A stretch of DNA of 64,000 nucleotides, from the IMG/VR virus record IMGVR_UViG_2861736478_000001, positions 1-64,000 of that record, one strand, 5' to 3'. Of this stretch, positions 10,710-52,875 are shown one piece after another. Made by a program: the position numbers and the translations under genes. The stretch is from a virus. Taxonomy: Duplodnaviria; Caudoviricetes. Position 1 is the stretch's first letter. The number at the start of each line of letters is the position of its first letter. Below the pieces are notes generated by a model. That model ran no database searches. It saw only the letters and a list, made by a program, of their open reading frames with translations, and was not told the DNA's origin.

Positions 10710-11023
10710 CGGCACAACCGCAAGCCGAAACGCTGGCTGGCCCAAGCTGGGCCCAGTACAACGACTGGGTCAGGCCGTGGTACCCCGAGGGCTCCGTCGG
10801 TCACGCCTACGCCGACTGCCACTGGATCGCCGAAGGCTTGTCGCTGGTCGAAGGGAGCGGCTGGCTGAATCTCCGCGCTGCCTCCTCGCCCGGAGGCTTC
10901 TCCTCGTGCGAGGAGTGTGTGCGGCGCTATGACCCGTCCATGGCCGCGGAGTTGTTCGGCGAGCCAGACGAGCCGGAGCCGAAGAAGCCCCGGAAGAGGA
11001 GGAAGGAGATGTCGACATCATGA
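10706..11023 (+). CDS. Hypothetical protein (H...C...CEEC)
   Basis: GTGA overlap; AGGAG RBS for following dnaN lies in its 3' end. Confidence 0.6.
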   Translation: MTAQPQAETLAGPSWAQYNDWVRPWYPEGSVGHAYADCHWIAEGLSLVEGSGWLNLRAASSPGGFSSCEECVRRYDPSMAAELFGEPDEPEPKKPRKRRKEMSTS

Positions 11024-12129
11024 AGGTGACGCTCGACCTGGTGCTCCTGCGGGACGCTGTCGCCTGGACCGGCCGGGCCGTCTCATCCCGGCCTGTCTCG
11101 CCAGTCCTGTCGGGCATGCTGCTGGAGGCGGAGGGCGACAAGCTGCGGCTGTCGGCCTACGACTATGACGTGTCCGCGCAGTGCGACATCGGCGCGCAGG
11201 TGGCGGAGCCGGGGCGGGCCTTGTTGCCCGCGCGGTTGCTCGTCGAGGTGTGCAAGAGCTTGCCGAGCAAGCCGGTGGAGTTGTCGCTGTCCGGGGCGGA
11301 GCTGGTCGTGCGCTGCGGCACGGCCGAGTTCGGGCTCCTGACCATGCCGGTCGAGGACTATCCGAAGCTGCCCGCGCCGCCGCGTCCGAGCGCGGTCATC
11401 GACGGCGCGTTGCTCCAGCAGGTGTCCGGCCAGGTCACCTCAGCGGCGTCGAGGGACACCACCATCCCGATGTTGTGCGTCGTCCGCTTCGACATCGAGG
11501 GTGAAAACGCGTGGGCTGCCGCCACCGACCGCTACCGGATCGCGAGCCGCACCTTCGCGTGGACCGCGATTCCACCACAGGCCAAGAAGGCGATTCGTCC
11601 GGCGTTCATGATGGTGCCGGCCGCGGAGCTGGAGGGCACCGTGAAGGGGTACGGCGCGGGCCAGGTGGAGATCGGCTGGAACGACAAGCTGGTGTCGATC
11701 GCCGGGGGCGGGCGCCTGACCACGATCCGGCTGATGGGGGAGGACTACATCGACTACCGCGCCCGGCTCAACCTGGACTACTCGACGTGGGTTCAGGTCG
11801 ATGTTGCCCCGCTCATCGCGGCGGTGAAGCGCATCGGGCTGGTGGCGGAGAAGAGTACGGCCGTGCGTCTGTCGTTCAGCGACGGCCAGGTGCTCGTTGA
11901 AGCCGGTGGCGGCGGCCTTGGCCGAGCGGCGGAGACGGTCGAGGCGGAGGTGTCGGGGCCGCCGGTCACGGTGGGGTTCCTGCCGACTTTCTTGCTGGAC
12001 GGGCTCACCGGCGTGGACACGCCAAGGGCGCGTCTCGGTATGAACGGATCGGCCAAGCCCGTTATGGTGACCGAGGATTCCGAGCAGCCGGTCTACCGCT
12101 ATCTCGTCATGGCGCTGCGGCTGGGGTGA
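11020..12129 (+). CDS. dnaN: DNA polymerase III beta sliding clamp homologue
   Basis: 369 aa; PVLSGMLLEA...LSAYDYDVS...EPGRALLPARLL...AATDRYR...GF.P.FLLDGL...YRYLVMALRL. Confidence 0.95.
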   Translation: MKVTLDLVLLRDAVAWTGRAVSSRPVSPVLSGMLLEAEGDKLRLSAYDYDVSAQCDIGAQVAEPGRALLPARLLVEVCKSLPSKPVELSLSGAELVVRCGTAEFGLLTMPVEDYPKLPAPPRPSAVIDGALLQQVSGQVTSAASRDTTIPMLCVVRFDIEGENAWAAATDRYRIASRTFAWTAIPPQAKKAIRPAFMMVPAAELEGTVKGYGAGQVEIGWNDKLVSIAGGGRLTTIRLMGEDYIDYRARLNLDYSTWVQVDVAPLIAAVKRIGLVAEKSTAVRLSFSDGQVLVEAGGGGLGRAAETVEAEVSGPPVTVGFLPTFLLDGLTGVDTPRARLGMNGSAKPVMVTEDSEQPVYRYLVMALRLG

Positions 12130-13365: not shown

Positions 13366-13551
13366 TCATCTGCGCGGTATGGCACGGAAGTCTTCTGCTG
13401 CCATCTCCTGCGCGTGGAGTATGCCCAGTTCGTATGCCTGCCTGCGGCTGGCCTCATTCCGGCGATGCCGCCAGGTGACCACGCCGGCCAAGATCCATCC
13501 GCCTGCCGCCACGGCAGCGAGGACGGCGTCGGCGTAGTCCAGGAACGGCAT
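13366..13551 (-). CDS. Small single-pass membrane protein (AYELG.LH.Q motif)
   Basis: TM AVLAAVAAGGWILAGVVTW + basic RHRR; GGAGG RBS; motif shared with 18737-19021. Confidence 0.7.
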   Translation of the reverse strand: MPFLDYADAVLAAVAAGGWILAGVVTWRHRRNEASRRQAYELGILHAQEMAAEDFRAIPRR

Positions 13552-13716: not shown

Positions 13717-14349
13717 TCACAGAGAGTCAAGACGCGCCTCTGTCAAGGGTTGCCACGCCCAAGTCGTCTCAGGTCCGTCTTGGGCCACGAGGCTGAGGCT
13801 GCGGATGGTCACATCTCGGTCGGGAAGCCGCTTGCCGAGCGCGTTGATGATGGGTGCGGCCGGGCCGTCGGCGCTGCTGTAGGCGACAGTGACATGGGGC
13901 GTCCAAAGGTCGTGAGCGAGCCGTCCTTCCTGCCCGGTGACCGTTCGGGTAGCCGTCTTGGCCGCTTCCAGCAGCGGCGTGAGCCGTTCGGCCGGCTGTG
14001 CTTCCAAGGCGACCGCCTCAGGGTGGTACAGCACGCGACCCAACGTCACCGAAATGGGGCCGACGTCGGCCAGCTGGTGCCCGGCGGCCTGAGCCATTTC
14101 GGCTGCCTGTGTGCTGGTGGTCTCGTGAGAGTAGCCAGCGATCAGCACCGTCAGATGGATATGGCTGAGTGGTACCAGGTCAAGCCCAGAAAGCCCGCCG
14201 AGGCGAGCTTGGGCTTCCTCCACGATGGCCACCGCCTCCGGTTCTTCGCCCAGCAACACGTGCCAGTAGAGCAAACCCTGGCCGGGCGGCAGCATCAGGG
14301 GCCGGCGAAGCTCCCAACGGTTGGCCATCTGCTCAGGTAAGGGGCTCAC
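13717..14349 (-). CDS. 2H phosphoesterase / 2'-5' RNA ligase family protein
   Basis: Two HxT motifs (HIHLTV, PHVTVAYS); GTG 14349 overlaps upstream TGA. Confidence 0.85.
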   Translation of the reverse strand: MSPLPEQMANRWELRRPLMLPPGQGLLYWHVLLGEEPEAVAIVEEAQARLGGLSGLDLVPLSHIHLTVLIAGYSHETTSTQAAEMAQAAGHQLADVGPISVTLGRVLYHPEAVALEAQPAERLTPLLEAAKTATRTVTGQEGRLAHDLWTPHVTVAYSSADGPAAPIINALGKRLPDRDVTIRSLSLVAQDGPETTWAWQPLTEARLDSL

Positions 14350-15596
14350 GCGTCCTCCGCCGCTGGAAGAAGAGCGCGAGCCGAGGTGAACGCGCTGATC
14401 TGCTCGCGCAACGTGGACACCGTATCGGAGCCGCGAAACTGAGGCGCTTGCAGGCGCGAGTCCATGCGGACCAGATAGCTGGTGATCGTGGCCAACCGAT
14501 GTTCGGGCGGCAAGAGCAGGGCAGGAGCGATGTGCTCGGCCGCCGCTTCGACGTCGTTCATCATCACGTAAGCGATCCCGGCGCCGAACCGCACCTGAGC
14601 CCACGAGGCGACAACCCGTGGAGCTCCATCGGCCCATGCGCTCTCCGCCGCGTCCGCCGCGGTCAAGGCCGCTCTCGCCTCCCTGGCCTGCAAAGCCACG
14701 GATAGGGCGTACAGCGACCGGCGCGGAGCGGGACACGACCAGGGCGTCACTCCGGAGTCGTCACTGACTACCTGCGCAGCGTCGTCCGCACGAAGGAGCG
14801 CCGCCTGCGCGCGCACGAAGTCCCCCAGCAGGCTCGCCGCGTTCGCCTCCTGGCACGCCAGGAGAACGCGCAGCGGAGTGGCCGGACTGCAATCGAACCC
14901 GCGACGAGCCGCATCGGCCGAGATCGCATATCGGTGGCGCCAGCGCTCCGTCTTTGCTTGGGCGCTGAGCGCCGCGGCCGGGCTCGCGTCGGCTTCCTCA
15001 GCACACAGCCGCGCAGCTTCTCCGTAGACCGCGGCCGATTCGTCGTCGTAGAGGTCGCCCATGAGGATGCAAGCATGCGCGAGAAGGTCGGCGTCGATGC
15101 GGAACAACTCGCGGGTCTGCCGTAGCCGCTGTTTGCCACCGCGCAGAAGAGCGTGAATCTGGCGGTGGTAGCGGAGCACGCTGGCGAGCATCTGGGCGGG
15201 CGGTATCTGCGTGTGCCTCTCCCCGAGGTGGTAGCGGGTCTCATCGAGCATGGCGATGGTGGAGTCACCCACGTTGGTCCGCTCGACCCACGAGGCGTGC
15301 TCGATGAGATCATCTACCGCGGGTGCCGCGGATCGGGTCGGACCCTGGAACAGGGTGACCTCGTCGATGCCGAACACGCGGCAGTACAGGAGCGGATACG
15401 GGTCTTTGGGCCTGTTCGTTCCGGCCTCGTGAGACTTGATCCGCCGAACCACGGAATCGAACTCAGATAGCACAACGGAACAACTACGCGCCGCCTTGTA
15501 CAGCTCCGCAGCCAGCTGTTTCTGCGACCAGCCCGCTGTGCGCCTTTCGTCGCGGATGGTCTCGGCCCAGGCCGGGAGTTCGCCCGCATCGCTCAT
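14346..15596 (-). CDS. XRE-family HTH regulator with helical/TPR-like C-terminus
   Basis: IRDERRTAGWSQKQLAAEL...IKSHEAG...PYPLLYCRVFG, then Ala-rich helical repeats. Confidence 0.85.
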   Translation of the reverse strand: MSDAGELPAWAETIRDERRTAGWSQKQLAAELYKAARSCSVVLSEFDSVVRRIKSHEAGTNRPKDPYPLLYCRVFGIDEVTLFQGPTRSAAPAVDDLIEHASWVERTNVGDSTIAMLDETRYHLGERHTQIPPAQMLASVLRYHRQIHALLRGGKQRLRQTRELFRIDADLLAHACILMGDLYDDESAAVYGEAARLCAEEADASPAAALSAQAKTERWRHRYAISADAARRGFDCSPATPLRVLLACQEANAASLLGDFVRAQAALLRADDAAQVVSDDSGVTPWSCPAPRRSLYALSVALQAREARAALTAADAAESAWADGAPRVVASWAQVRFGAGIAYVMMNDVEAAAEHIAPALLLPPEHRLATITSYLVRMDSRLQAPQFRGSDTVSTLREQISAFTSARALLPAAEDA

Positions 15597-15696
15597 GCCG
15601 CAGCACCTCGTCAGCAAGGAGGGGACACGCTCGTGTCCCTCAGTGTCCCCCATCGGCATCTGTTCGCGCATCGTTACTCACCGTTGTGATAGACGC

Positions 15697-16729: not shown

Positions 16730-17596
16730 ATGGACAATCCCAAGATGCAGCGCATCAGCCCTCCACTGCGCCAGCGCCACCTCGCTCAGATCCTTCGCGA
16801 CCTGAGGTCCGATCGAGACCAGACGTTGAGCGACGCGATCACCCAGCTCCGACAGCTCGGACGGGCATGGAGCCGCACCAAGCTTTCCAGAGTCGAGACA
16901 GGGGAGAGCCTGCCAACTCCCGGTGACCTGGCCGATCTGCTGGACGTGTACGAGGTGAACTCCGACACGCGGGCGACATGCGAGGAGCTTGCCCGCCAAG
17001 CCCGCCTGAAGCCCTGGTGGAAGGAGTACGCAGCCGTAGTAGGGGAGTACGTTGCGCTTGAGACCGAAGCCACGATTGAACGCTCCTGGCAACCTCTGCT
17101 GGTTCCGGGTCTGCTCCAGACGGCGGACTACGCGCGGGAGATCTTCACTGCGGGCCAGCACGGCTCTTCGCCTCGCCTAGTAGAGCTCCAGCTCAAGGCA
17201 CGTCTCGCCAGGCAGCGTGAACTTCTCGGCTGTGATCTTCCAGTCGAATTGCATGGGGTTATCGGTGAGCAGGCATTGCGCCGCAGGATCGGCACCCGAG
17301 ACACCATGTTCGAGCAGCTCGAGAGGCTGGTCGTCATGGCCTCCTGGCCCAACGTGGTCATCCAAGTGCTTGAGGATTCAGTGGGTGCTCACCCGGGGCT
17401 GAGCGGCCCCTTCGTTCTGCTGTCCTTGCCTGGTGGGGCGAACTACGTGTACTTCGAGACGCCGCCGGATGAACGGGTGGCCGATAAGATCGACACCGTC
17501 CGTGAGTACGAGCGCTGCTTCGAGCGTCTCGCGGCCTTGGCGTTGACTCCCGAGCAGTCCGCCGTCTTCGTCTCGGAGATCCTCAAGGAGCTGTAG
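16730..17596 (+). CDS. XRE-HTH + DUF5753 regulator (WhiJ-like)
   Basis: KLSRVETGE...PWWKEY...YVALETEA...LVPGLLQTADYAR...RLARQ...IQVL...GPFVLL...VYFE. Confidence 0.92.
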   Translation: MDNPKMQRISPPLRQRHLAQILRDLRSDRDQTLSDAITQLRQLGRAWSRTKLSRVETGESLPTPGDLADLLDVYEVNSDTRATCEELARQARLKPWWKEYAAVVGEYVALETEATIERSWQPLLVPGLLQTADYAREIFTAGQHGSSPRLVELQLKARLARQRELLGCDLPVELHGVIGEQALRRRIGTRDTMFEQLERLVVMASWPNVVIQVLEDSVGAHPGLSGPFVLLSLPGGANYVYFETPPDERVADKIDTVREYERCFERLAALALTPEQSAVFVSEILKEL

Positions 17597-17827
17597 TTGC
17601 TGTCCCAGGAGTGGCAGAAGAGTTCGTGGTCGGACACCGCTGACGGCTGCGTCATGGTGCGACGTAACGGTGACCGTGTCGAGGTGGGGGATACGAAGCC
17701 GGAAGGGGCGGGGCTGGTGTTGTCCTTCACTCCGTTGGAGTGGTTGTGCTTCCGCGAGGGCTTCGTGGCCGGCCAGTTCGACCTGGAGGAGTGGCACGAG
17801 ACGGGAGGCGTGAGCGCTTCCGGCTAG
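17597..17827 (+). CDS. DUF397 domain protein
   Basis: WQKSSWS...CVMV...VEVGDTK...L.FTPLEW..F..G. Confidence 0.9.
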   Translation: MLSQEWQKSSWSDTADGCVMVRRNGDRVEVGDTKPEGAGLVLSFTPLEWLCFREGFVAGQFDLEEWHETGGVSASG

Positions 17828-18087
17828 CTGGAACGTTGCATTCCCTGGGCCTCGGCGCGAGCGTCGTTTCGGCCCTGTCGGTACGCCTCTGAGAGTGTCT
17901 GGGGTTCCGGCAGGCCGTATGGCAGGGCGAGGAGTCCCAGGAGTGCTCCCACCAGGATCAACGCTACGAACGCGGCGGTGAGAGCGGGGTGTTCGGCGGT
18001 GTCTGGCGTTGTGACGCTGATGAGCATGGCGGTGGCCGCTCCGCACAACGCGGTTACAGCGCCCGTGACTTGGATGGCTCGCCTCAT
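17824..18087 (-). CDS. Small two-TM membrane protein (AYRQG motif)
   Basis: Two hydrophobic segments; C-terminal LSEAYRQGRND. Confidence 0.65.
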   Translation of the reverse strand: MRRAIQVTGAVTALCGAATAMLISVTTPDTAEHPALTAAFVALILVGALLGLLALPYGLPEPQTLSEAYRQGRNDARAEAQGMQRSS

Positions 18088-18420
18088 TGGGGCCCCCTGA
18101 AATAGTTCGAAACCTTTCCCGTTTTGGGTGAAGATCACACTATGACACCGGCCGGGATTCCCGCACCATGCCCTCCATTAGCGACGATAGGTGATCGTTA
18201 TCTTTTCTTGCTGATCTAGAGGTTACGATCCGCAGTGGGCTTACGGGGCAAGGCTCTCGCGAGTGGCGGGTTATGGCCGTGGCCAAAACAGGCCGAACGA
18301 ATCCATGGACACACACGGCGAGAGCGGTTTTTCTTGACGCTCACGCAGAAAGTTGACTCTTGCACTGCCGCATGTCAGTTGCAGGTGCACAGAGCGAGGA
18401 AGAGAAGGGAACGGTCCACG

Positions 18421-18699
18421 ATGGACTCCAATCTCAGGACGAAGATCGGCTTGTACCTTGCGGCTGGGGCGGCAGTCGTCGCGATCATCCTGGCGGGCGC
18501 GCTCCCAGGCGCCGCCGACAGCGACCCCGGCGCGCCGCTGAGTTCGACCACGGCAGAGCCGATCCCGAGCCCTGAGTCTGAATCCGCCAGCGCTTCATCT
18601 GACGATTTGCAGGGCCCGGCCTCGACAAGCAGCCCGACGTCGACGCCGCGTTCGACATCCCCGGTGGCCGAGCGGAACGCGCACGGAAGCGGCTGGTAG
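18421..18699 (+). CDS. Small secreted Ser/Thr/Pro-rich peptide precursor ending in HGSGW
   Basis: Signal peptide MDSNLRTKIGLYLAAGAAVVAIILAGALPGAA; low-complexity linker; AAGGGA RBS. Confidence 0.7.
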   Translation: MDSNLRTKIGLYLAAGAAVVAIILAGALPGAADSDPGAPLSSTTAEPIPSPESESASASSDDLQGPASTSSPTSTPRSTSPVAERNAHGSGW

Positions 18700-18736
18700 A
18701 GCTGATACAGGCGCCTTCGCGCTCCGGAAGCAGCGC

Positions 18737-19021
18737 ATGCTGACACGACAGAACAGGCGCATGCGCGCATGCATGGTCGCCGCAACCGCTGGTTGGGGCC
18801 TAAGTTCGCTCGCCGGCGCGCTCGTGGTGCTCGGCCCGGCCGGGCCGAGCACCCACGCCTTCAGCCTGCTCACAATGTGGCTTCTCGCCGTGCCGATCCC
18901 GGCCTCCGTATGCGCTGCACAACAGCGCCACCGAAAAGCCCGAGCAGCCACAGCTCGGCTCGCCTACGAACTCGGCCTTCTCCACGAACAGGACCTCGCC
19001 CCCACGATGCCCCTCCGGTGA
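18737..19021 (+). CDS. Small two-TM membrane protein (AYELG.LH.Q motif)
   Basis: Two hydrophobic stretches, basic RHRK, AYELGLLHEQD. Confidence 0.65.
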   Translation: MLTRQNRRMRACMVAATAGWGLSSLAGALVVLGPAGPSTHAFSLLTMWLLAVPIPASVCAAQQRHRKARAATARLAYELGLLHEQDLAPTMPLR

Positions 19022-19056
19022 AACGACGCAACGCATAAGCCGACTAGGAGAAACAG

Positions 19057-20040
19057 GTGTACAAGGCGCTCGGGCTCGACCACGAGGAGAGCCACGTCTA
19101 CCAGTTCGTTCTGGCCAACAGCCCCATACCCCGCGGCGAGGTCATCGAGAGGTTCGGTGGCCCAGCGGAGAGGCTGTTAGGGAACCTGGCGGAACGCCAT
19201 CTCACCATGGGCGATGAGCTGATCAGCGCGTGCAACCCGGCGCTGGCCTTGAGCGGTGGTGTGCTCCGCATCCAGAAGGAGTACACCACCGCGAAGTCCG
19301 CACTGGATGACCTGGTCAGCCGCTTCAACGAGAACCCGAACAACTGGGAGTCGGCGGACAACCCGGTTGAGGTCATCCGCGATCCCGCGATCATCACGAA
19401 AACGTTCTCGGAGATCCGGGACACTGCGGTGCGGGAACTGAGGGCCATGTACACCTACCCCTACCAGTTCGTCACACCCTTGGTTGACGACGTCGTGGAG
19501 CACACCACGACGTGCCGAATCCTGGTCGAGCCGAGCGTCTTCTCTGACCCCGCCGCCCGCCGGGACATCACCAAGTCGCACAACAGCGGGTGCGAGGTGC
19601 GAGTCGCGCCGGACGACGATCTCCCAACGAAGATGCTGGTGAAGGACCGAGAGCTGGCGATCATGCCGCGCGACCGAGAGACCGGCGCTGTCCTGGTGAT
19701 CCAGCCCGGCCTGATGATGTCGTTAGTCCTGGCGGCCTTCGACGCCCGGTGGGCGCAAGGCGTACCGGCCCGCGCGTTCGTCCGGCGCACTGGCGCCGAA
19801 TCAGGCACGCGAGTGCGCCGACCCAAGGCCGTTCTGTTCGACGAGGACGGATTGCAGATCCTCAGCATGCTGGCTGACGGGGCGACGGACTCGATGATCG
19901 TCAAAGCGACCGGGGTGTCACAGCGCAACCTGACCCGCCGGATCGGCCAGTTCCTGGATTTCTGCGGCGCGAGGAGCCGATTCCAGCTGGGATTCATCGC
20001 GGCGACCAGCGAGTGGATGCCGAAGCGCCAGGCGTCGTAG
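19057..20040 (+). CDS. TrmB-wHTH / PLD-fold sensor / LuxR-HTH transcriptional regulator
   Basis: ALGLDHEESHVYQFVL; LPTKMLVKDRELAIMP; ILSMLADGATDSMI...SQRNLTRRI...GARSRFQLG; AGGAG RBS. Confidence 0.85.
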   Translation: MYKALGLDHEESHVYQFVLANSPIPRGEVIERFGGPAERLLGNLAERHLTMGDELISACNPALALSGGVLRIQKEYTTAKSALDDLVSRFNENPNNWESADNPVEVIRDPAIITKTFSEIRDTAVRELRAMYTYPYQFVTPLVDDVVEHTTTCRILVEPSVFSDPAARRDITKSHNSGCEVRVAPDDDLPTKMLVKDRELAIMPRDRETGAVLVIQPGLMMSLVLAAFDARWAQGVPARAFVRRTGAESGTRVRRPKAVLFDEDGLQILSMLADGATDSMIVKATGVSQRNLTRRIGQFLDFCGARSRFQLGFIAATSEWMPKRQAS

Positions 20041-20049
20041 CCCGGCTCC

Positions 20050-20067
20050 GCAAGCAGGTCCGCTAGC
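20050..20067. promoter_or_regulatory. GCAAGC-N6-GCTTGC family site between convergent LuxR and repressor genes
   Basis: GCAAGC AGGTCC GCTAGC. Confidence 0.5.
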
Positions 20068-20581
20068 GAGCTCTGAATCGGAGCGTCGCGGCGTGCATAT
20101 CCATGAGGGCATCGATCTGGCCGAACAGCACGTCGCGCATCTCCTGGCGGTCCTGCTCCGTCGCGCCGGGCACATTGTCGATCTCTGCCAGCTGGCGGAG
20201 GAGCTTCTGCTTGGTCCCCGCGGGAATGTCGTCCAAGCTGACCTTGGAGGCCGCCAGCTCGGTCTTGGCGCGCGCGTCGATCTCCTTGCGGAGCAGTTCC
20301 GCAGCGTCGGTGCGTCCAGTCGCCGCGATTTGCTCGGGGGTGGCGTAGAGGACGAGCCCGATGAGAACGAGCTCCCAGTCCTCCGCGATCTTCCGGCCGG
20401 CTTCGATGTTGCGCCACGTTCCGTCGCTGAAGCCGTACCCATCGGGGGCGATCTCCGTCAGCCGCTTCATCGCGGTCGACAGGCTCATCTTGCGGCTTAG
20501 CGCAGCAGGTCGTTCCCGTAGCTGGCGTATGAGGCTGGCTTCGGGTGGCAGAGCTGGTGAGGCGCTCTTGTTGGTGGCCAC
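20063..20581 (-). CDS. CI-like immunity repressor (XRE HTH)
   Basis: PPEASLIRQLRE...FSDGTWRNIEAG...ATPEQIAATGRTDAAELL; divergent from early lytic operon. Confidence 0.8.
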   Translation of the reverse strand: MATNKSASPALPPEASLIRQLRERPAALSRKMSLSTAMKRLTEIAPDGYGFSDGTWRNIEAGRKIAEDWELVLIGLVLYATPEQIAATGRTDAAELLRKEIDARAKTELAASKVSLDDIPAGTKQKLLRQLAEIDNVPGATEQDRQEMRDVLFGQIDALMDMHAATLRFRAR

Positions 20582-20699: not shown

Positions 20700-20760
20700 G
20701 CGCGATTTTCGCGAATTTCTCGAAAATCCTTGACTTTCTCGAATGATCGACTAGCGTCTG
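20700..20760 (+). promoter_or_regulatory. Lytic promoter with overlapping repeated operators
   Basis: TTGACT(20730)-N16-TAGCGT; repeats TTTCGCGAA, TTTCTCGAA, TTTCTCGAA. Confidence 0.65.
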
Positions 20761-20795
20761 ATTGTGCTAGTAGATCATCACCAACCAAGGTCGCG

Positions 20796-21173
20796 ATGGG
20801 GGACATGAACCCCGTGAACGACCTCATCGAAAGCGTGCAAGACCTGGTCAACGGCATTCTCGACGCAGCGGCTCCCCCCAGGAAGAAGCTCTTCACCGTC
20901 CAAGAAGCCGCACTAGCGATGCGCGTGAGCCCATCCACCGTCCTCGGGCTCATCCGAGACAAGAGCCTGGCCAACATCTCGATCCACAAGAAGAGCTTCC
21001 GCATCCCGCGCCAAGCCCTCCGAGACCACCTGTTCCACCGATACGTCGCCTCCGAACTCGCGGCGGCCACGCAAGAACTCGCACTCGTGCAGCTGGAGCT
21101 CAAGCGCCGCAAGGCCGAGCTCGACCGCGTCACCAAACGCCTCGCCCAAGCCAGCGACGCGCCCGCCCCATAG
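20796..21173 (+). CDS. Cro/excisionase-like HTH_17 protein with C-terminal coiled coil
   Basis: LFTVQEAALAMRVSPSTVLGLIRDKSL...FRIPRQAL. Confidence 0.8.
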   Translation: MGDMNPVNDLIESVQDLVNGILDAAAPPRKKLFTVQEAALAMRVSPSTVLGLIRDKSLANISIHKKSFRIPRQALRDHLFHRYVASELAAATQELALVQLELKRRKAELDRVTKRLAQASDAPAP

Positions 21174-21776: not shown

Positions 21777-21970
21777 CCAGCACCACCCTGAACCCCCCGG
21801 GCGAGCAACCGCCCAACGAAGACGAACTCGACGCCTTCATCGGCGCTCTCCGCGAAGAGCAGCCCGCCGAGCAGCGGCGTCACCCGTACCTCCACGCGCC
21901 GTCGTGGCGCGGCGGGCCGGCCTTGGGCACCTACGGCGAGTGGGAGTACGAGCGCGAGCGTGGTCTGTGA
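21773..21970 (+). CDS. Hypothetical protein
   Basis: GTGA overlaps on both sides. Confidence 0.55.
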   Translation: MTSTTLNPPGEQPPNEDELDAFIGALREEQPAEQRRHPYLHAPSWRGGPALGTYGEWEYERERGL

Positions 21971-22869
21971 CGGTCCTGACCGCTCACCAGATCCCGGACG
22001 TTCAGCCCGGCTCCACGGAGTGGCTTCGCTACATGTCCGCTTCCAAGGCCGCCGCTGTGCTCGGCCTGTCGCCATGGGAGTCGCCGTTCTCCCTGTGGTG
22101 CCTCATGGCCGGGCTGGTCGAACCGGAACCCCAGACCAAGGAGCAGGCCCGCGGCCACTACCTCGAGCCCGCGGTCGCGAACTGGCTTGCCGACCGGCAC
22201 CCGGAGTACCGGATGCTGCCCGGCGGCACCTGGGTCAGCAACGATCGGCCCTGGCAGCTCACCTCGCCGGACCGGCTTTTCTACGCCGGGGACGAGCTGG
22301 CCGAGCTGATCGAGTGCAAGACCGACGCCGACGGCCGCGAATGGGGCAAGCCCGGCACCAACGAGATCCCGCTGTACTACCTCGTCCAGGTGTTGTTCCA
22401 GATGGACACCATCGGCGCCCGCCGGACCCGCGTCGGCCTGCTCACCGGCAGGCTCGAATTCCGCGAGTACGTGGTGGACTACGACGAGCACTACGCCGCC
22501 GTGATCCGCGAGCGGTGCGAGTCGTTCATGGCCTCCCTCCTGCTGGGAGACATGCCCGACCTCGACGACCGTAAGGCCACGTACGAGTCGCTGCGTCGCC
22601 AGCACCCCCTGATCGACCGGGCTGGCAAGTACTTCATGGAGCCCGGCCTGGCCATCGAGGTGATCGACGCGCTCCAGGAGCTCGAATCCGCAGAAGCAGC
22701 AGTGCTGACGGCCAAAGGGAAACTGCTGGTCGCCATGGGCACCGCCCGCCGGGCCTACTTCAACGGCGACCTGGTCGCTATCCGCATGGCCAAGGGCGCC
22801 GAAGGTGTGCCCTTCCTCAAGTTTGAGAAGGCCCTGCCCGACATTTCCGACCTCGTAGGAGCATTTTGA
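21967..22869 (+). CDS. YqaJ / lambda-exonuclease-like viral recombinase
   Basis: EWLRYMSASKAAAVLGLSPWES...GHYLEP...SPDR...IECKT...YYLVQVLFQM. Confidence 0.93.
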   Translation: MTVLTAHQIPDVQPGSTEWLRYMSASKAAAVLGLSPWESPFSLWCLMAGLVEPEPQTKEQARGHYLEPAVANWLADRHPEYRMLPGGTWVSNDRPWQLTSPDRLFYAGDELAELIECKTDADGREWGKPGTNEIPLYYLVQVLFQMDTIGARRTRVGLLTGRLEFREYVVDYDEHYAAVIRERCESFMASLLLGDMPDLDDRKATYESLRRQHPLIDRAGKYFMEPGLAIEVIDALQELESAEAAVLTAKGKLLVAMGTARRAYFNGDLVAIRMAKGAEGVPFLKFEKALPDISDLVGAF

Positions 22870-24275
22870 TGACCACTGAAACGCTGCCCGCCGTGATTCG
22901 CCGCGAGGACACCCTCGTCGAGCGGCAGGAGTACGCCAAGGCCCTGGCTGTGTCGGACCTCCTGCCCGCCCAGTACCGGAACAAGCCGGGCAATGTGCTG
23001 TACGCGGTCGAGTTTGGCCGCTCTCTTGGCATCTCCCCGATGGCCGCCATCCTTGGCGTGCACATCATCGAAGGCCGGGCCTGTGCCTCCTCCGGGCTCA
23101 TCTCCGCGCTCGTGCGGGACGCCGGCCACAGGCTGCGCATCTGGGTCGAACGTAACCCCCAGAACGGGGCGCTGGTGAAAGCGGTCGCCACGATCGTCCG
23201 TGGTGACGACCCCGACTTCGAGTTCCGCGCCGAATGGACGTGGGACCGCGCCGTCGCTGCCGGGGTCACGGGCAAGAAGGTGTGGCAGAACTATCGGGAA
23301 GGGATGCTGAAGGCTCGCGCGATCACTGAAGTGGCCCGCGAAGCCTGCGAGGAGGCCCTGCGCGGCGTCGGCTACACCCCCGAAGAGCTCGGCGCAGAGG
23401 TCAACGAAGACGGCTCCATCGTCATCACCGACGCCAGGACGCCGCAGGGCCAGTCCCTCGGTGACGCGCTCGGCGTCAACCCCGGCCACGGTGACGACTC
23501 CCAGGACACCGACAAGGCCAGCAAGAAGCAGCGCAACGAGATCGGCGCGGCGATGGTCGCCCAGGGATACACCAAGGAGACCGCGCCCGGCTTCCTGTCG
23601 AAGGTCGCGCAACGGCCGGTGCAGAAGTCCGAGGAGCTGACGGGGGCAGAGGCCGCCCAGGTCATGCACGCCCTCAACATGGCGGCCAAGGCCCAGACCG
23701 CGCCAGAGGCCCAGCCCGAATCCGAGCCCCAGGCCGCAGCGGATGACGACATCCACGAGGGCGAGCTGGTCGACGACGAGGAGCCGCACGAGGCCGAGCC
23801 AGTCGTGATGATCAGCAAGGGCCAGCAGGCCGAGATGCACGCCCTGCTCAAGGACTGCGAGATCACCTCCGCCACCGGGGCGGGCTCGAAGGCCATCAAC
23901 GACGAGAAGCGGTTCACCTACCTCTCCCACTTCCTCAACCGCCCAATCACCTCCAGCAGCGAACTCACATACGAGGAAGCACAGGGCGTGGTCGCCGCGC
24001 TGCGGCAGCTGCGAGCCGAGATCGAGGCGGAGCGGAACCTTCAGCTCTCCCAGATCGGCGGCCTGTTCCAGGGCCTCGGCGTCGAATCCAAGGAGGACCG
24101 GCTCCGCGACACCTCCGCCCTCCTCGGCCGCACCATCACCAAGCCGGACGAGCTCTCCTCGGCCGACCTCGCCACGCTCCTCCAGGGCCTGAACGCGGCC
24201 GGAGGCGTCATCGATGCCTGGACCGCACTCATCGCCCAGGTGGAGGCCGCCCGCGGTGAGGACGGTCAGCACTGA
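22866..24275 (+). CDS. RecT-like single-strand annealing protein with long C-terminal extension
   Basis: LLPAQYRNKPGNVL...HIIEGR...W.NY..GMLKARAITEVAR...YTPEELG; adjacent to YqaJ. Confidence 0.85.
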   Translation: MMTTETLPAVIRREDTLVERQEYAKALAVSDLLPAQYRNKPGNVLYAVEFGRSLGISPMAAILGVHIIEGRACASSGLISALVRDAGHRLRIWVERNPQNGALVKAVATIVRGDDPDFEFRAEWTWDRAVAAGVTGKKVWQNYREGMLKARAITEVAREACEEALRGVGYTPEELGAEVNEDGSIVITDARTPQGQSLGDALGVNPGHGDDSQDTDKASKKQRNEIGAAMVAQGYTKETAPGFLSKVAQRPVQKSEELTGAEAAQVMHALNMAAKAQTAPEAQPESEPQAAADDDIHEGELVDDEEPHEAEPVVMISKGQQAEMHALLKDCEITSATGAGSKAINDEKRFTYLSHFLNRPITSSSELTYEEAQGVVAALRQLRAEIEAERNLQLSQIGGLFQGLGVESKEDRLRDTSALLGRTITKPDELSSADLATLLQGLNAAGGVIDAWTALIAQVEAARGEDGQH

Positions 24276-39860: not shown

Positions 39861-39935
39861 GACCGATGAGCGAGTGGCACCCCTGGTACGGCATGGATGA
39901 GGCTTCGGCGCGAGGCGGTCATTAGTGGATCTCCA

Positions 39936-40931
39936 ATGACCGCAGAGCTTGCGCCGCTGCGAGACGGTGCCCTACTCCTTGACGACGAGGTGGCGGAGCG
40001 GTTGGCCGCGCTCGACCAGGCGGCCGTCGCCTACTTGGACACGACGACGAAGCCGAACACCAGGCGCGCTTACGGCGACGACTGGCGGACGTGGACCAGG
40101 TTCTGCGCCGAGCTGCGCATCCCGGCCGGCGCGGCGACGCTGGGCACGCTGGTCGGGTTCGTCAACTGGTTGTACTCGGCCGGGAACGCGCCCTCCACGG
40201 TAGACCGGCGGCTGGCGGGCGTGTCGGTGACGTTCCGGGACGCGGGCAGGCCGATCGACAAGCCGGTCATGCAGGCCGCCCGGAAGGCGATGGCTGCGGA
40301 GGCGGACAACCTAGCCCGTGCCAACGAGCGACGTGGCCGGGGGAAGGCCCCCGCAGTCACGGTCGCGCAGCTGCGGCTGATGTGCCGGGCCTGCCCAAGC
40401 GACACGCTCGCCGGGATCCGCGACCGGGCGCTGCTCCTGATCGGGTTCGCCATCGCGGCACGACGGTCCGAGCTGGCCTCGCTGCACGTGTCCGACGTCG
40501 TCGAGGTCGAGGAGGGCCTGATCGTCACGGTCCGGTTCGGTAAGCGCGGCGCCCGCGAGGTGGCCGTGCCGTACGGGTCGAATCCGCTGACGTGCCCGGT
40601 CCGGGCGTGGCGGGCGTGGCTGGCCGCGTCCGGGCTCGTGGAGGGCCCGGCGTTCCGGTGGATCGACCGGCACGACAAGCTCCGGGATCGGGAACTGTCC
40701 GGTCAGGCTGTCGGGGACGTGGTGACCCGCGTTGCTGGACGGGCCGGGCTGGCAGGCCGGACGGCGCATGGCCTGCGCTCGGGCCTGGCGACAGAGGCCC
40801 GTCGCGCCGGGCATGACTCGGTGTCGATCGCTGCACAGGGTGGTTGGTCACCCACGTCAAGGGACCTATTCGGCTACATGCAGATCGTAGATCGCTGGGC
40901 TGACAACGCCGCAGCGGGACTCGGCCTGTGA
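39936..40931 (+). CDS. Cre/XerD-like tyrosine recombinase (resolvase type)
   Basis: NTRRAYGDDW; RDRALLLIGFAIAARRSEL (R); RFGK (K); AHGLRSG (HxxR); QGGW; FGYM (Y). Confidence 0.92.
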   Translation: MTAELAPLRDGALLLDDEVAERLAALDQAAVAYLDTTTKPNTRRAYGDDWRTWTRFCAELRIPAGAATLGTLVGFVNWLYSAGNAPSTVDRRLAGVSVTFRDAGRPIDKPVMQAARKAMAAEADNLARANERRGRGKAPAVTVAQLRLMCRACPSDTLAGIRDRALLLIGFAIAARRSELASLHVSDVVEVEEGLIVTVRFGKRGAREVAVPYGSNPLTCPVRAWRAWLAASGLVEGPAFRWIDRHDKLRDRELSGQAVGDVVTRVAGRAGLAGRTAHGLRSGLATEARRAGHDSVSIAAQGGWSPTSRDLFGYMQIVDRWADNAAAGLGL

Positions 40932-46560: not shown

Positions 46561-47058
46561 ATGAGTGTTCCCCTTGCAAAGCGAGTTGAGGTCGCTGAGC
46601 GGCGAGCGAAAATCGTTCAGATGCGTCTGGCTGGAATGAGCCATGACGCCATCGCACGGCAGCTCGGCATCAAGGGCGGTGCCCGCGCAGTGTCCAAGGA
46701 CATGACGCGCGCGCTGGCCTCCGCGGCGAAGGCGCAGCAGGAGTCGTCGGAGCAGCTGCTCGACATCGAGATCAAGCGGCTGGACCGGCTGATGCAGGCC
46801 CTCTGGCCGAAGGCCCTCGACGGCGACGTCAAGGCCGTCGAGGCGTGCGAGAAGCTCATCACCCGCCGCAGCTACCTGCTCGGCCTGGACCAGATGAACC
46901 GCAACGGCGCCCAGGACGGCGACGTCCTGTCTCTGCTCGGGTCGCTGTTCGACTCGCTGCGCGGCCGTCACACCCCGGACGAGGTCGTCGAGGCCCACGT
47001 GGTCGGCGAGATCGAGTCCGGTGACGAGGATGACCTGGACGACGAGGACGACGGGTGA
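46561..47058 (+). CDS. terS: Terminase small subunit (HTH)
   Basis: RLAGMSHDAIARQLGI; RLDRL..ALWPKA..GD; directly upstream of TerL. Confidence 0.8.
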   Translation: MSVPLAKRVEVAERRAKIVQMRLAGMSHDAIARQLGIKGGARAVSKDMTRALASAAKAQQESSEQLLDIEIKRLDRLMQALWPKALDGDVKAVEACEKLITRRSYLLGLDQMNRNGAQDGDVLSLLGSLFDSLRGRHTPDEVVEAHVVGEIESGDEDDLDDEDDG

Positions 47059-48341
47059 GTCTGGGTCTGGTCCGGCTGTCGCCCAAGCAGGAGCAGTCCA
47101 TCGCGGAGTCCACCGCGCGCATCAACATCTGGACGGGCGCGGTCAGGTCGGGCAAGACCATCGCATCGCTACTCAGGTGGCTGATGTACGTCTCCCGTGC
47201 GCCGCGCGGAGGCAGTTTGGTGATCGTCGGCAAGACGAGCGACACGATCAGCCGGAACGTCTTCGAGCCGTTGATGGACCCTGCGCTGACCGGGCCGGTG
47301 GCGCGCAGAGTGTTCTACAACCGGGGCGCGCCGACCGCGAACATCTTGGGCCGCCGGATCGAGATCATCAGCGCGAACGATGTCAGGGCCGAGTCCCGCC
47401 TGCGAGGCATGACCTGTGCGGGCGCGTACGTGGACGAGGCCACCTTGATCCCGGAAGCTTTCTGGGACCAGCTCCTCGCCCGCTGCTCGGTACCCGGCTC
47501 CAAGATCTTTTGCACGACCAACCCCGACGCTCCGAACCATTGGCTTCGCAAGCGTTTTCTCCTGCGGAGTCACGAGCTGGACCTGCGGTGGTGGCAGTTC
47601 CAACTCGACGACAACCACAGCTTGGACCCCGTCTACGTCACCAACCTCAAGGCCGAGTACACCGGGCTCTGGTACCGCCGGTACGTGCTCGGCGAGTGGT
47701 GCATGGCCGAGGGCGCGATCTATGACATGTGGGATCCGGATCGGCACATCGTCGACCACATCCCGCTCATGGAGCGCTGGCTGTCGGTGGGCGTCGACTA
47801 CGGCACGGTCAATCCTTTCGCGGCGCTGCTCATCGGTGTCTCGACCCCGGACAAGGTGGGCCAGCGGCGCCTCTACCTGGCCTCCGAACTGCGGTGGGAC
47901 TCCCGCGTCGAACGCCAGCAGCTGACCGACGCCGAGTACTCATCCCGGCTTCAGGAATGGCTCGACGGCATGCCGGACTCCTACGGTCCCGGAACCCGAG
48001 GAGTGCGGCCGGAGTGGCTGATCGTCGACCCGTCCGCCGCCTCCTTCATCACGCAGCTGCACCGTGACGGGCTCCTGCCGATGATGGGCGACAACTCCGT
48101 CCTGGACGGTATCCGCACGGTCAGCAACCTCATCGCCGCCGACCACCTGCGGGTGCACCGCTCCTGCGCAGGTTTCCTCGGCGAAGTCGGCTCCTACAGC
48201 TGGGACGAGAAGAAGGCCGAACGCGGCGACGACGCACCCATCAAGCTCGACGACCACTCCTTGGACGCCGCCCGGTACGGCTTGCACACCACGCAGGCAG
48301 CATGGGCGCAGCTGCTGGAGCCCGTCCCCAACTACAAGTAG
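47055..48341 (+). CDS. terL: Terminase large subunit (PBSX-like)
   Basis: GAVRSGKT; YVDEA; TTNPDAPNHW; GVDYGTVNP; DPSAASF; DDHSLDAARY. Confidence 0.97.
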   Translation: MSLGLVRLSPKQEQSIAESTARINIWTGAVRSGKTIASLLRWLMYVSRAPRGGSLVIVGKTSDTISRNVFEPLMDPALTGPVARRVFYNRGAPTANILGRRIEIISANDVRAESRLRGMTCAGAYVDEATLIPEAFWDQLLARCSVPGSKIFCTTNPDAPNHWLRKRFLLRSHELDLRWWQFQLDDNHSLDPVYVTNLKAEYTGLWYRRYVLGEWCMAEGAIYDMWDPDRHIVDHIPLMERWLSVGVDYGTVNPFAALLIGVSTPDKVGQRRLYLASELRWDSRVERQQLTDAEYSSRLQEWLDGMPDSYGPGTRGVRPEWLIVDPSAASFITQLHRDGLLPMMGDNSVLDGIRTVSNLIAADHLRVHRSCAGFLGEVGSYSWDEKKAERGDDAPIKLDDHSLDAARYGLHTTQAAWAQLLEPVPNYK

Positions 48342-51307: not shown

Positions 51308-52875
51308 GTGGCGGTGCCGCTTCCCGACCGTGATATGGAATGGCCCCCGCCCCACACACGGCAAGAGAACAAGCTCTACGCCCAGTGGGGGGCCTGGTAC
51401 TCAGGCGACCCCGACCGGCTGTCACAGGTGTACGGCGCGGGCGTGACACCGGGCCTCGGCCTGGATCTGAAGGGCTGGGACCGGCCGCTCCAATACGCCG
51501 GCGGCGTCGTCGGTCGCGTGGCCCGCTGGTTCTGGGGCTCGCCGATTCCGGCTGGCCAGTCGCGCAGCACGAAGCTGCACGTGCCGATCGCCGCCGACAT
51601 CAGCGCGACCAGCGCCGACCTGCTGTTCTCCGAGCCGCCCACTCTCCGCGTCCCGGGCAAGAAGGGCCAGTCGCGCCTAGACCGGATCCTCGCTGACGGC
51701 GGCGTCTACAGCATGCTGCTGGAGTCCGCCGAGATCGGCTCCGCGTACGGCGGCGTCTACCTGCGCGTCGGCTGGAACAGCGAGATCGCCGACTACCCCA
51801 TCCTCGACCTGGTCCCCGCCGATGCGGCGGTGCCGGAGTTCGCCAACAACAGGCTCCGCGCGGTGACCTTCTGGAAGGTCGTTCATGAGGAGGAGAAGGC
51901 GGTCTGGCGGCACTTGGAACGCCACGAGACCGGCCGGATCTACCACGGGCTGTACCGCGGTGACCGTGAGCGGCTCGGCATGCAGGTGCCTCTGGAGGAT
52001 CACCCCGAGACCGCCGGATTCGCGGAGATCGTAGACGCCGAGGGCGGCCTGGACACCGGCTACGACAAGGCTTGCTCACCTACTACGTGCCGAACATCAA
52101 GCCTCACCGGCTGCTGCGCGGCACTTCGCTCGGCCGCAGCGACTACAGCGGCGTCGAGCCGCTCATGGACGCGCTGGACGAGACCTACACGTCCTGGATG
52201 CGGGACCTGCGGCTCGGAAAGGGCCGGATCATCGTGCCGGAGGTCTACCTGGCCAACACCGGTCGCGGCCGGGGGTCGACGTGGGATCCGGACCGCGAGG
52301 TGTACTCCGGCCTGGGCATGATGCCGCCCGCCAATGGCGGGCCCAGCATGATCACGATCTCCCAGTTCGACATTCGCGTCGCCGAGCACAAGGAGACCGC
52401 TCGCACCCTGCTGGCGCAGATTCTGCGCGGCGCGGGCTACTCGGTGCAATCCTTCGGCGAGGCGGGCGACGGCCAGGCGGCCACAGCGACGGAGATCCAC
52501 TCCCGTGAGCGCAAGTCGTTCGTCACCCGTGGCAAGAAGCTGAACTACTGGACGCCCGCCCTGGCGTGGCTCGCCGAGGCTCTCCTGTCGATCGACCTGG
52601 CCGTGTTCGGCACGAAGGTCGTCGCGGAGAAGGCCACCATCGAGTGGCCAGACGGGGTCATGCCCGATCCGGAGAGCCTGAGCCGGACGCTGGACATGCT
52701 CAACCGGGCCCAGTCCGCCAGCCTCGACACCCGTGTCCGGATGCTCCACCCCGACTGGGACGACACCCAGGTCAAGGCCGAGGTGCGGCGCCTGCGCGAC
52801 GAACTCGGGCTGAACCTGCCGGACCCGGCCGAGCTGGACGAGACGTACGTCCCGGGCGATGGCGACGACGACTAG
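51308..52875 (+). pseudogene. Portal protein (SPP1 gp6-like) interrupted by a 1-bp deletion at ~52070
   Basis: N-part WGAWYSGDPDRL...LHVPIAADI in 51308 frame; C-part LTYYVPN...GRSDY...LDETYTSWMRD in 52072 frame; junction TAC GAC AAG GC TTG CTC. Confidence 0.85.

Follow-up and report, generated by a model that had tools for sequence, protein, structure and literature searches.

A stretch of phage DNA in which genes for a small exported protein, a membrane protein and a DNA-binding regulator lie next to a repressor-like gene raises the question of whether the phage uses a secreted peptide to influence its lysis-lysogeny choice. We addressed this question in a temperate phage of a Nonomuraea-like actinomycete, using as the window the 64,000 nucleotides at positions 1 to 64,000 of IMG/VR record IMGVR_UViG_2861736478_000001. 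A sequence-only reading of this DNA had proposed that an exported, Trp-terminated peptide is matured outside the cell, re-imported and sensed by a TrmB-LuxR-type receptor, in a manner mechanistically distinct from the arbitrium system of Bacillus phages. The observation on which that proposal was based is confirmed: the three genes are real and are located at 18421-18699 (+, 92 aa), 18737-19021 (+, 94 aa) and 19057-20040 (+, 327 aa), convergent on a 172-aa gene at 20063-20581 (-) with a gap of 22 bp. The interpretation was only partly supported, as described below.

We first examined the 92-aa product. It has a basic n-region, a hydrophobic core and a GAA|D cleavage-type site (signal peptide, 18421-18516), followed by an S/T/P-rich linker and a C-terminal HGSGW (18682-18696) immediately before the stop codon. 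The GC3 value of the gene is 0.81, like that of neighbouring genes, and the start is supported by conservation of MDSNLRTK and of the GAAGGGAA ribosome-binding site. The 94-aa product is a two-helix membrane protein (2TM) with two hydrophobic segments and basic N- and C-termini, which suggest an N-in/C-in topology by charge. An alignment of 17 homologues showed a conserved Trp in each helix, an outer loop of only about 7-12 residues, and a cytoplasmic tail, at residues of about 55-94, with the pattern R..A..AYELG..H. The 2TM protein is an orphan, for which only 3 near-identical hits and no Pfam or Atlas family were found. Its topology would fit a class II holin; however, the gene lies in the immunity region between the peptide and regulator genes, and not beside an endolysin in a lysis cassette. 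Searches of PADLOC, Pfam, PHROG and NCBIfam gave nothing for the peptide, the 2TM protein or the 172-aa protein.

The 327-aa regulator had no Pfam, NCBIfam or PHROG hit on its own, and its sequence is also below the Pfam thresholds for TrmB and GerE. A profile built from 92 family members, however, matched TrmBL2 (5box) over positions 4-247 at E 6e-21 and the LuxR/GerE-type HTH domains of DevR, NarL and GerE over positions 255-323 at E 1e-11 to 5e-8. Pfam TrmB was found on 80 of the 92 members and Pfam GerE on 72 of the 92. A first structure prediction from a 6-sequence alignment was poor (pLDDT 49) and was discarded in favour of an AF2 model from the 92-sequence alignment (pLDDT 88), which matched TrmBL2/TrmB and, for its middle domain, PLD-fold proteins such as Nuc and Zucchini. 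The regulator is thus assigned, by family profile and by predicted fold, a TrmB-type wHTH (residues 1-60), a long helix (61-92), a PLD-like domain (about 104-234) and a LuxR-type HTH (257-317). The catalytic HxKxxxxD motif of phospholipase D enzymes is degenerate, reading P-T-K-M-L-V-K-D with the His replaced by Pro; P190, K192 and D197 are conserved.

The sequence-only reading had called the 172-aa product a CI-like repressor. This label was not confirmed, since it rests on the position of the gene, divergent from the rightward early operon, and on a language-model lead to Cro/C1 HTH clusters in an Atlas feature search (score 0.93), whereas no Pfam, NCBIfam or PDB-profile hit was obtained; we therefore refer to it as a probable HTH, repressor-like protein. 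The first gene of the rightward operon (20730-21173, +) encodes an HTH_17/excisionase-family DNA-binding protein (Pfam HTH_17, E 1.5e-6; TIGR01764, E 2.9e-6) and is followed by a YqaJ exonuclease gene and a RecT-like gene. In the divergent promoter region, at 20707-20743 (+), there are three TTTC(N)CGAA repeats (TTTCNCGAA); these are 3 clustered matches out of 5 in the window, against 0.83 expected.

We next asked whether homologous regulators have conserved peptide neighbours, whether the C-terminus is conserved and whether the ORF might be a truncated larger gene, points that had been set beforehand as ways to refute the proposal. In about 24 related prophages of Streptosporangiaceae, with regulators down to about 30% identity, a signal-peptide ORF sits beside the regulator, and the ORF is not a truncated larger gene. 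An n-h-c layout was judged heuristically to be present in the precursors examined, with AxA|D/E in 17 precursors and signal-type N-termini in the further ones. The length of the precursor varies from 63 to 151 aa, with in-frame indels even between phages whose regulators are 82-94% identical, and the linker cannot be aligned; across 22 precursors only the last 5-8 residues align. The C-terminus is always [H/D/S]-x-[G/S/A]-G-[W/M]-stop. Position 2 varies between close relatives (V/M/T/F in the H-x-G-G-M clade), while positions 1, 3, 4 and 5 hold. One doubtful locus, L117, in which the ORF ends AIGW on the divergent strand and no repressor homologue is present, was left out.

The peptide-linked regulators form one clade (SH-aLRT 93). 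The peptide ORF with its C-terminal motif is present in all of about 24 members of this clade and is absent next to 50 + 79 other family members, against a loose background of 1 ORF in 681 kb. The statement in the sequence-only reading that actinomycete TrmB-LuxR genes often neighbour tiny secreted ORFs with (D/G)SxW motifs is only partly right: the association is confined to one phage-borne clade, 24 of 75 sampled in the order and 0 of 79 in a wider sample, although a D-x-G-G-W variant does exist. The motif is not a general sorting tag, as in the host genome only 4 of 3,918 loosely predicted signal-peptide ORFs end in it, and of these only the module's is a small PT-rich protein. A second, 34%-identical copy in the host genome proved to be a chromosomal paralogue beside an S8 peptidase, with no peptide. 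A tblastn search of the regulator against 50,697 deposited phage records gave no match, and scans of IMG/VR gave only two further viral contigs (L009 and L177), and none for two other clade members. A culture-collection strain, Nonomuraea longicatena JCM 11136, carries a copy whose regulator is 94% identical.

Several members and features of the module had been missed by the sequence-only reading. The 2TM gene is an obligate member. A second 2TM gene, 2TM', lies divergently upstream of the peptide gene at 17824-18087 (-) and encodes 87 aa from the conserved Met (the ORF extends to 18138); its homologues occupy the same position in six of the loci compared (L001, L003, L005, L090, L092 and L094), and the Y and G of its cytoplasmic tail motif, A-Y-x-x-G, are invariant. 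A paralogous 61-aa single-TM protein at 13366-13551 (-) has the same tail motif (RRQAYELGILHAQE). The 172-aa protein is itself module-specific: a homologue lies next to the regulator in 16 of 16 further clade loci tested for which a locus was available, and in none of the non-peptide loci. Linkage survives rearrangement, since in locus L149 the 2TM gene lies downstream of the regulator, and in locus L160 the repressor homologue lies upstream on the same strand.

The last of these features is a conserved cis element upstream of the peptide gene, at 18263-18311 (+), consisting of a degenerate dyad (18264-18279), a third half-site (18290-18294) and a -35-like TGGACA (18306-18311). The region is conserved at the DNA level across clades. 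A dyad TG[GAT]CA-N6-TG[CT]CA, plus a gap of 26-27 nt, plus T[AGT]GAC[AG] occurs in 13 of 23 loci, against 0.065 in shuffles. The element is unique in the window, although the window's own dyad is degenerate, with 3 of 5 half-site matches. The central base of the dyad changes in step with the regulator clade, and the same dyad occurs twice beside an unrelated chromosomal paralogue (L098). We considered whether the region is an RNA element; however, no Rfam match was found and the RNAalifold covariation term was unfavourable (+1.92), and we read the region as a putative promoter/operator, with the dyad at an activator-type position.

What, then, does the module do? The analysis itself establishes that the precursor has the features of a Sec substrate cut by signal peptidase I, that only its extreme C-terminus, [H/D]-x-G-G-[W/M] at the free carboxyl end, is under constraint, and that it is always linked to a 2TM protein, to a TrmB/PLD-like/LuxR regulator and to a repressor-like HTH protein. 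The window is phage DNA, and the module sits at the divergent early-promoter region. The explanation we favour, tentatively and at less than even confidence, is that this is a conserved lysogeny-region module of one lineage of Streptosporangiaceae temperate phages that uses an exported, gene-encoded peptide as an extracellular cue. The remainder of this view is inference. The C-terminal tail (5 to about 12 residues) would be the active part and would accumulate outside the cell, to be read either after re-import, by the PLD-like domain of the regulator in the style of arbitrium, or at the membrane by the 2TM protein, whose conserved cytoplasmic AYxLG tail would hold or release the regulator. 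The regulator would then act on the dyad in front of the peptide promoter (positive feedback) and, directly or through convergent transcription into the repressor-like gene 22 bp away, would bias lysis against lysogeny. Maturation, re-import, binding to the PLD-like domain and any effect on lysogeny all belong to the inferred part, and several observations speak against the view. The middle domain resembles TrmBL2, which lacks the sugar-binding C-terminal subdomain of TrmB, so that a ligand pocket is not established, and a search for residues specific to the peptide-linked clade gave only a handful of scattered positions and no pocket signature. The precursors are long for pro-peptides, and several carry a conserved Thr-rich beta-type segment (T-V-x-N-P-D-G-S-K-T-I-T-K-T), which suggests that the whole protein may matter. 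Five phages share an identical HGSGW although their regulators have diverged to 60% identity, so private channels are not evident. Moreover, all carriers are related phages, and co-occurrence and clade-wise co-variation of peptide, operator and regulator are therefore confounded by shared descent.

Among the alternatives, the one that survives best, although we consider it unlikely, is a lysogenic-conversion or superinfection-exclusion cassette, in which the exported protein and the small membrane proteins act on the host envelope, for example by masking a receptor or blocking DNA entry of other phages, and the TrmB/LuxR protein merely controls their expression or is a second immunity regulator, with no signal read back. 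The genes lie next to the repressor-like gene, where prophages commonly keep lysogen-expressed membrane proteins, three small membrane proteins with a shared tail motif lie in this regulatory island, and PT-rich linkers of variable length could span the wall. However, a PADLOC search gave no hit to known defence families, an exclusion protein would not be expected to conserve only a terminal pentapeptide while the rest drifts freely in length and sequence, and the cassette points in the same direction as the early lytic operon, not as the repressor.

Somewhat less likely is a cis-acting envelope sensor, in which the exported tail, with its free hydrophobic C-terminus, would be a ligand for a host extracytoplasmic protein such as a PDZ-type protease, or for the 2TM protein of the same cell, and the 2TM protein would act as a membrane anchor or anti-regulator of the TrmB/LuxR protein; the module would then report secretion, protease activity or wall state of the host and not cell-to-cell communication. 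The motif is always at the very C-terminus, which suggests that the free carboxylate is recognised, W and M interchange at the last position as expected for a hydrophobic anchor residue, and the 2TM protein with its conserved cytoplasmic tail is an obligate member. Against this, the outer loop of the 2TM protein is very short, no protease gene is linked, and the tail motif also occurs in paralogues away from the regulator, so its partner may be a host protein. Synteny without coupling, in which independent accessory genes and a regulator that works alone are neighbours only through descent from one phage lineage, is the least likely, because although all carriers share the flanking gene order (DUF5753/DUF397 on one side, and HTH_17, YqaJ and RecT on the other), linkage holds down to about 30% regulator identity while the flanks vary, it survives two independent rearrangements, and strong purifying selection acts on just five terminal residues.

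We compared the module with the closest known systems. Like arbitrium (AimP-AimR-AimX) of Bacillus SPbeta-like phages and the wider RRNPP peptide systems (PMC13220667, PMC10075063), it is phage-borne and has a small gene for a signal peptide, a variable pro-region and a conserved short C-terminal peptide, next to a gene for a predicted cytoplasmic DNA-binding regulator in the lysis-lysogeny region. It differs in that the candidate receptor is TrmB wHTH + PLD-like + LuxR HTH and not HTH + TPR, the precursors are 63-151 aa against about 40-60 aa, two small membrane proteins are obligate members, and no aimX-like gene was identified. In the arbitrium/RRNPP systems a mature peptide of 5-10 residues is released from the C-terminus, imported by Opp and bound by the receptor, steps that for the present module are only inferred. 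An HTH-TPR protein encoded at 14346-15671, the only one nearby, was considered as an AimR-like receptor but was rejected because it is absent from the other module-bearing phages. With the archaeal TrmB/TrmBL2 regulators the module's regulator shares the N-terminal wHTH, the long helix and the PLD-like N-terminal subdomain of the effector-binding domain, but the sugar-binding C-terminal subdomain of TrmB is replaced by a LuxR-type HTH, and the protein is bacterial and phage-borne. With NarL, DevR and GerE it shares the C-terminal four-helix HTH, but it has no receiver or autoinducer-binding domain. Membrane sequestration of transcription factors, as by anti-sigma factors such as RseA together with the DegS PDZ domain that reads C-terminal peptides, is similar in pairing a small membrane protein carrying a conserved cytoplasmic tail with a cytoplasmic regulator, and in an extracytoplasmic motif that needs a free hydrophobic C-terminus; this is an analogy only, supported neither by homology nor by a linked protease.

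No description of this module was found in the literature searched. Gene-encoded peptide signalling, and peptide communication between phages, are documented for Bacillota, whereas Actinomycetota are described as using small molecules (PMC10075063). The module is a credible candidate, on sequence evidence alone, for peptide signalling built from parts unlike any known phage communication system. In its boldest form, which is possible but unlikely on present evidence, a Sec-exported precursor would release a C-terminal peptide ending [H/D]-x-G-G-[W/M] that is taken up and bound by the PLD-like domain of the regulator, with position 2 setting specificity, and so sets the lysis-lysogeny choice at the population level, in a system of Actinomycetota non-homologous to arbitrium. 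A peptide-based switch in actinophages, built from a TrmB/PLD-like/LuxR regulator and small membrane proteins instead of a TPR receptor, would show that viral communication had arisen independently with different parts, and the large, uncharacterised actinobacterial TrmB-LuxR family would gain its first ligand class.

The window is high-GC phage DNA inside an 11.5-Mb genome of the Nonomuraea type. It holds a large terminase (47055-48341), a tyrosine recombinase (39897-40931), a YqaJ exonuclease with a RecT-like neighbour (21904-24275), a DnaN clamp (11020-12129), a WhiJ-like DUF5753/DUF397 pair (16730-17827), and, at 52859-55387 on the + strand, a phage minor capsid protein 2 fused to a C-terminal ADP-ribosyltransferase exoenzyme-type domain (Pfam E 3e-10). 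Elsewhere in the window, a gene for an XRE HTH with an NsdA-like TPR regulator (14346-15671, - strand) overlaps a 2H phosphoesterase gene (13717-14736, - strand); this pair is not conserved in the other module-bearing phages, and ARAGORN also calls a tRNA-Asp at 14568-14643 (- strand) inside the same stretch. The genes of interest lie at the divergent early-promoter region, where three + strand genes end 22 bp from the stop of a 172-aa gene on the - strand, which is in turn divergent from an HTH_17/excisionase-family gene heading the rightward operon. A repeat, TTTC(N)CGAA, present three times, marks this divergent promoter at 20707-20743. The gap between the convergent stops of the regulator and the 172-aa gene (20040-20063) shrinks to 2-4 bp, or the genes overlap, in the related loci L004, L092 and L094. 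No terminator-like hairpin was found, so read-through would be antisense to the repressor-like gene.

We first examined the products of the three + strand genes. The 92-aa product starts MDSNLRTK, has a hydrophobic core and a GAA|D site followed by an S/T/P-rich stretch, and ends HGSGW; its GC3 is 0.81, which fits the coding pattern of its neighbours, and a GAAGGGAA ribosome-binding site precedes the ATG. The 94-aa product (18737-19021, + strand) has two hydrophobic helices (2TM) between a basic N-terminus and a basic C-terminal tail, and by charge it is N-in/C-in. The 327-aa protein by itself matches nothing in Pfam, NCBIfam or PHROGs, but it belongs to a large family (2,526 representatives at E <= 1e-3), and of 92 members scanned, 80 match Pfam TrmB and 72 match GerE. 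A profile of the family matches TrmBL2 over positions 4-247 (E 6e-21) and LuxR-type HTH domains over positions 255-323 (about E 1e-11). With the deep alignment the AF2 model reaches pLDDT 88, and a Foldseek search with it returned TrmBL2 and TrmB, and, for the middle domain, PLD-fold proteins (Nuc, Zucchini, FAM83, PLD3). The histidine of the HKD motif is replaced, giving PxKxxxxD, so no enzymatic activity is expected. The observation made in the sequence-only reading, an exported precursor, a 2TM protein and a regulator with TrmB-type and LuxR HTH domains, is therefore correct in its anatomy. Only its description of the 172-aa protein as CI-like is weakly based, given that this protein has no family or PDB hit, and an Atlas feature search gave a lead of 0.93 to Cro/C1 HTH clusters.

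We next asked whether homologous regulators have conserved peptide neighbours and whether the C-terminus of the precursor is conserved, the two conditions on which the proposal had been staked; both were fulfilled. Near relatives of the regulator are few and lie in syntenic prophages of Nonomuraea and Streptosporangium, more distant ones (32-36% identity) lie in the same phage context, and a profile search of 401 genomes of the order gave further loci. In every member of this set, a signal-peptide ORF precedes the regulator. The precursors run from 63 to 151 aa, their linkers cannot be aligned, and they differ by in-frame indels even between phages whose regulators are 82-94% identical. The C-terminal ends fall into groups: HGSGW in five phages, including one with a regulator only 60% identical; HTGGW, HMGGW, HSGGW and HLGGW in W-ending relatives; HAGGM, HVGGM, HTGGM, HMGGM, HFGGM and HFAGM in an M-ending clade; DTGGW, DSGGW and DAGGW in a D-type clade; and STGGM in loci L160 and L149. 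In the alignment of the last 30 residues, only the last 5-8 columns are conserved, with a weaker P-x(4-5)-N/Q-x pattern just before them. All 17 precursors laid out together show an n-region, an h-region and AxA followed by Asp, Glu or Gln. The longer precursors, those of L090, L092, L107, L111, L118, L121, L123, L124, L160 and L177, contain a conserved Thr-rich segment (about T-x-T-V-x-N-P-D-G-S-K-T-I-T-K-T) between the linker and the tail, which the window's precursor lacks.

The association proved to be specific to one group of regulators. On a maximum-likelihood tree of 75 regulators from the order, 23 peptide-linked ones plus that of L149, which has the motif but a disrupted N-terminus, form one group (SH-aLRT 93), and the 50 regulators without a peptide form the other. 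Among 40 further, lower-scoring family members only one carried the peptide, and among 79 distant chromosomal members from other actinomycetes none did; the loose background was one ORF in 681 kb. A sample of 400 genomes of the class gave two hits at E <= 1e-55 in other families, both of which are chromosomal and neither of which has a peptide. In the host genome only 4 of 3,918 loosely predicted signal-peptide ORFs end in the motif, and the module's is the only small PT-rich one, so the motif is not a general sorting tag. One chromosomal subfamily of TrmB-LuxR regulators, represented by L103 (contig C23 of the host), L120 and L174, sits directly beside a large secreted S8 (subtilisin-like) peptidase gene in several genera, which is a possible link between the family and extracellular proteolysis or peptides.

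The module has more members than the sequence-only reading recognized. The gene for the about 95-aa 2TM protein lies between the peptide and regulator genes in nearly all loci, and its conserved features are a Trp in each helix and a cytoplasmic R..A..(A)Y-x-L-G..H tail. In L115 (contig C65 of genome G357) the 2TM reading frame appears truncated or frameshifted compared with the near-identical L116, which may be an assembly error or a pseudogene. A second 2TM gene (2TM'; 17824-18087, - strand) lies divergently upstream in all loci with enough flank. Its product shares the Y-x-x-G tail, as does a 61-aa single-TM protein encoded at 13366-13551 (- strand), so that three small membrane proteins of this phage carry a cytoplasmic (A)Y-x-x-G motif just after the last helix. 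A profile of the 172-aa protein found a homologue next to the regulator in 16 of 16 further clade loci and in none of the peptide-less loci. In L149 the 2TM gene lies downstream of the regulator, and in L160 the 172-aa homologue lies upstream on the same strand; linkage therefore survives rearrangement.

The non-coding stretch between the divergent 2TM' gene and the peptide gene (18085-18420) is conserved at the DNA level across clades, about as well as the coding genes, and the homologous stretch was found in L004, L090, L092, L094, L107-L124 and L177. Its core is a dyad, TG[GAT]CA-N6-TG[CT]CA, followed by a fixed 26-27-nt spacer containing a third half-site and then by T[AGT]GAC[AG], and -35-like and -10-like blocks lie at fixed spacing. 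The core arrangement is present in 13 of 23 loci, against 0.065 expected from shuffles. The central base of the dyad changes with the regulator clade (TGGCA/TGCCA, TGACA/TGTCA, TGTCA/TGCCA). The window's own copy (18264-18279) is degenerate, but it sits at the homologous place and is unique in the window. The exact dyad TGGCA-N6-TGCCA occurs once in each long locus of its clade, always at this place. It also occurs twice (positions 1148-1163 and 2980-2995) beside a chromosomal TrmB-LuxR paralogue (27% identity) in L098, a locus of the host genome (C5:458426-462385), where about 0.004 would be expected in 4 kb, hinting that the dyad is the binding-site type of the family. The region is probably the module's promoter/operator, and an interpretation of it as an RNA element found no support. 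We infer, from sequence alone, that the dyad is the regulator's site; because it lies upstream of a -35-like hexamer, it would act as an activator site, giving feedback on the peptide operon.

Full-text searches for arbitrium or peptide signalling in actinophages, and for TrmB-LuxR regulators with signal peptides, found no description of such a module, and signalling in Actinomycetota is stated to be typically by small molecules, with peptide systems belonging to Bacillota (PMC10075063). What the analysis itself establishes is the gene content, the conserved C-terminal end and the linkage of the genes, whereas export, activity of the tail, its read-out and recognition of the dyad are inferred. 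The data fit a module that exports a protein whose free C-terminal tail is the functional part and couples it to a transcription factor at the phage's switch. Two routes of read-out could be envisaged. In the first, the peptide would be re-imported and bound by the PLD-like domain, as the sequence-only reading proposed, but this leaves the obligate 2TM proteins unexplained. In the second, it would be detected at the membrane through the 2TM protein, whose conserved cytoplasmic tail could hold or release the regulator, but this has to work with an outer loop of only 7-12 residues. The proposed interpretation is partly supported, and a simple analogy with arbitrium is weakened by the long precursors, some with the Thr-rich, beta-type segment, by the identical HGSGW in phages whose regulators differ by 40%, and by the absence of a demonstrated ligand pocket. 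Furthermore, all carriers are kin, so the clade-wise matching of peptide, operator and regulator cannot be separated from shared descent. Extracellular peptide signalling of some form is the reading we favour, although tentatively and at less than even likelihood, and direct import and binding, one form of it, is by itself unlikely. Of the alternatives, an envelope or exclusion cassette survives best but is itself unlikely, and a cis-acting envelope sensor is slightly less probable. Mere synteny is improbable. The module fails the defining receptor feature of RRNPP/arbitrium systems, and it is not a member of that family, though it may work like one.
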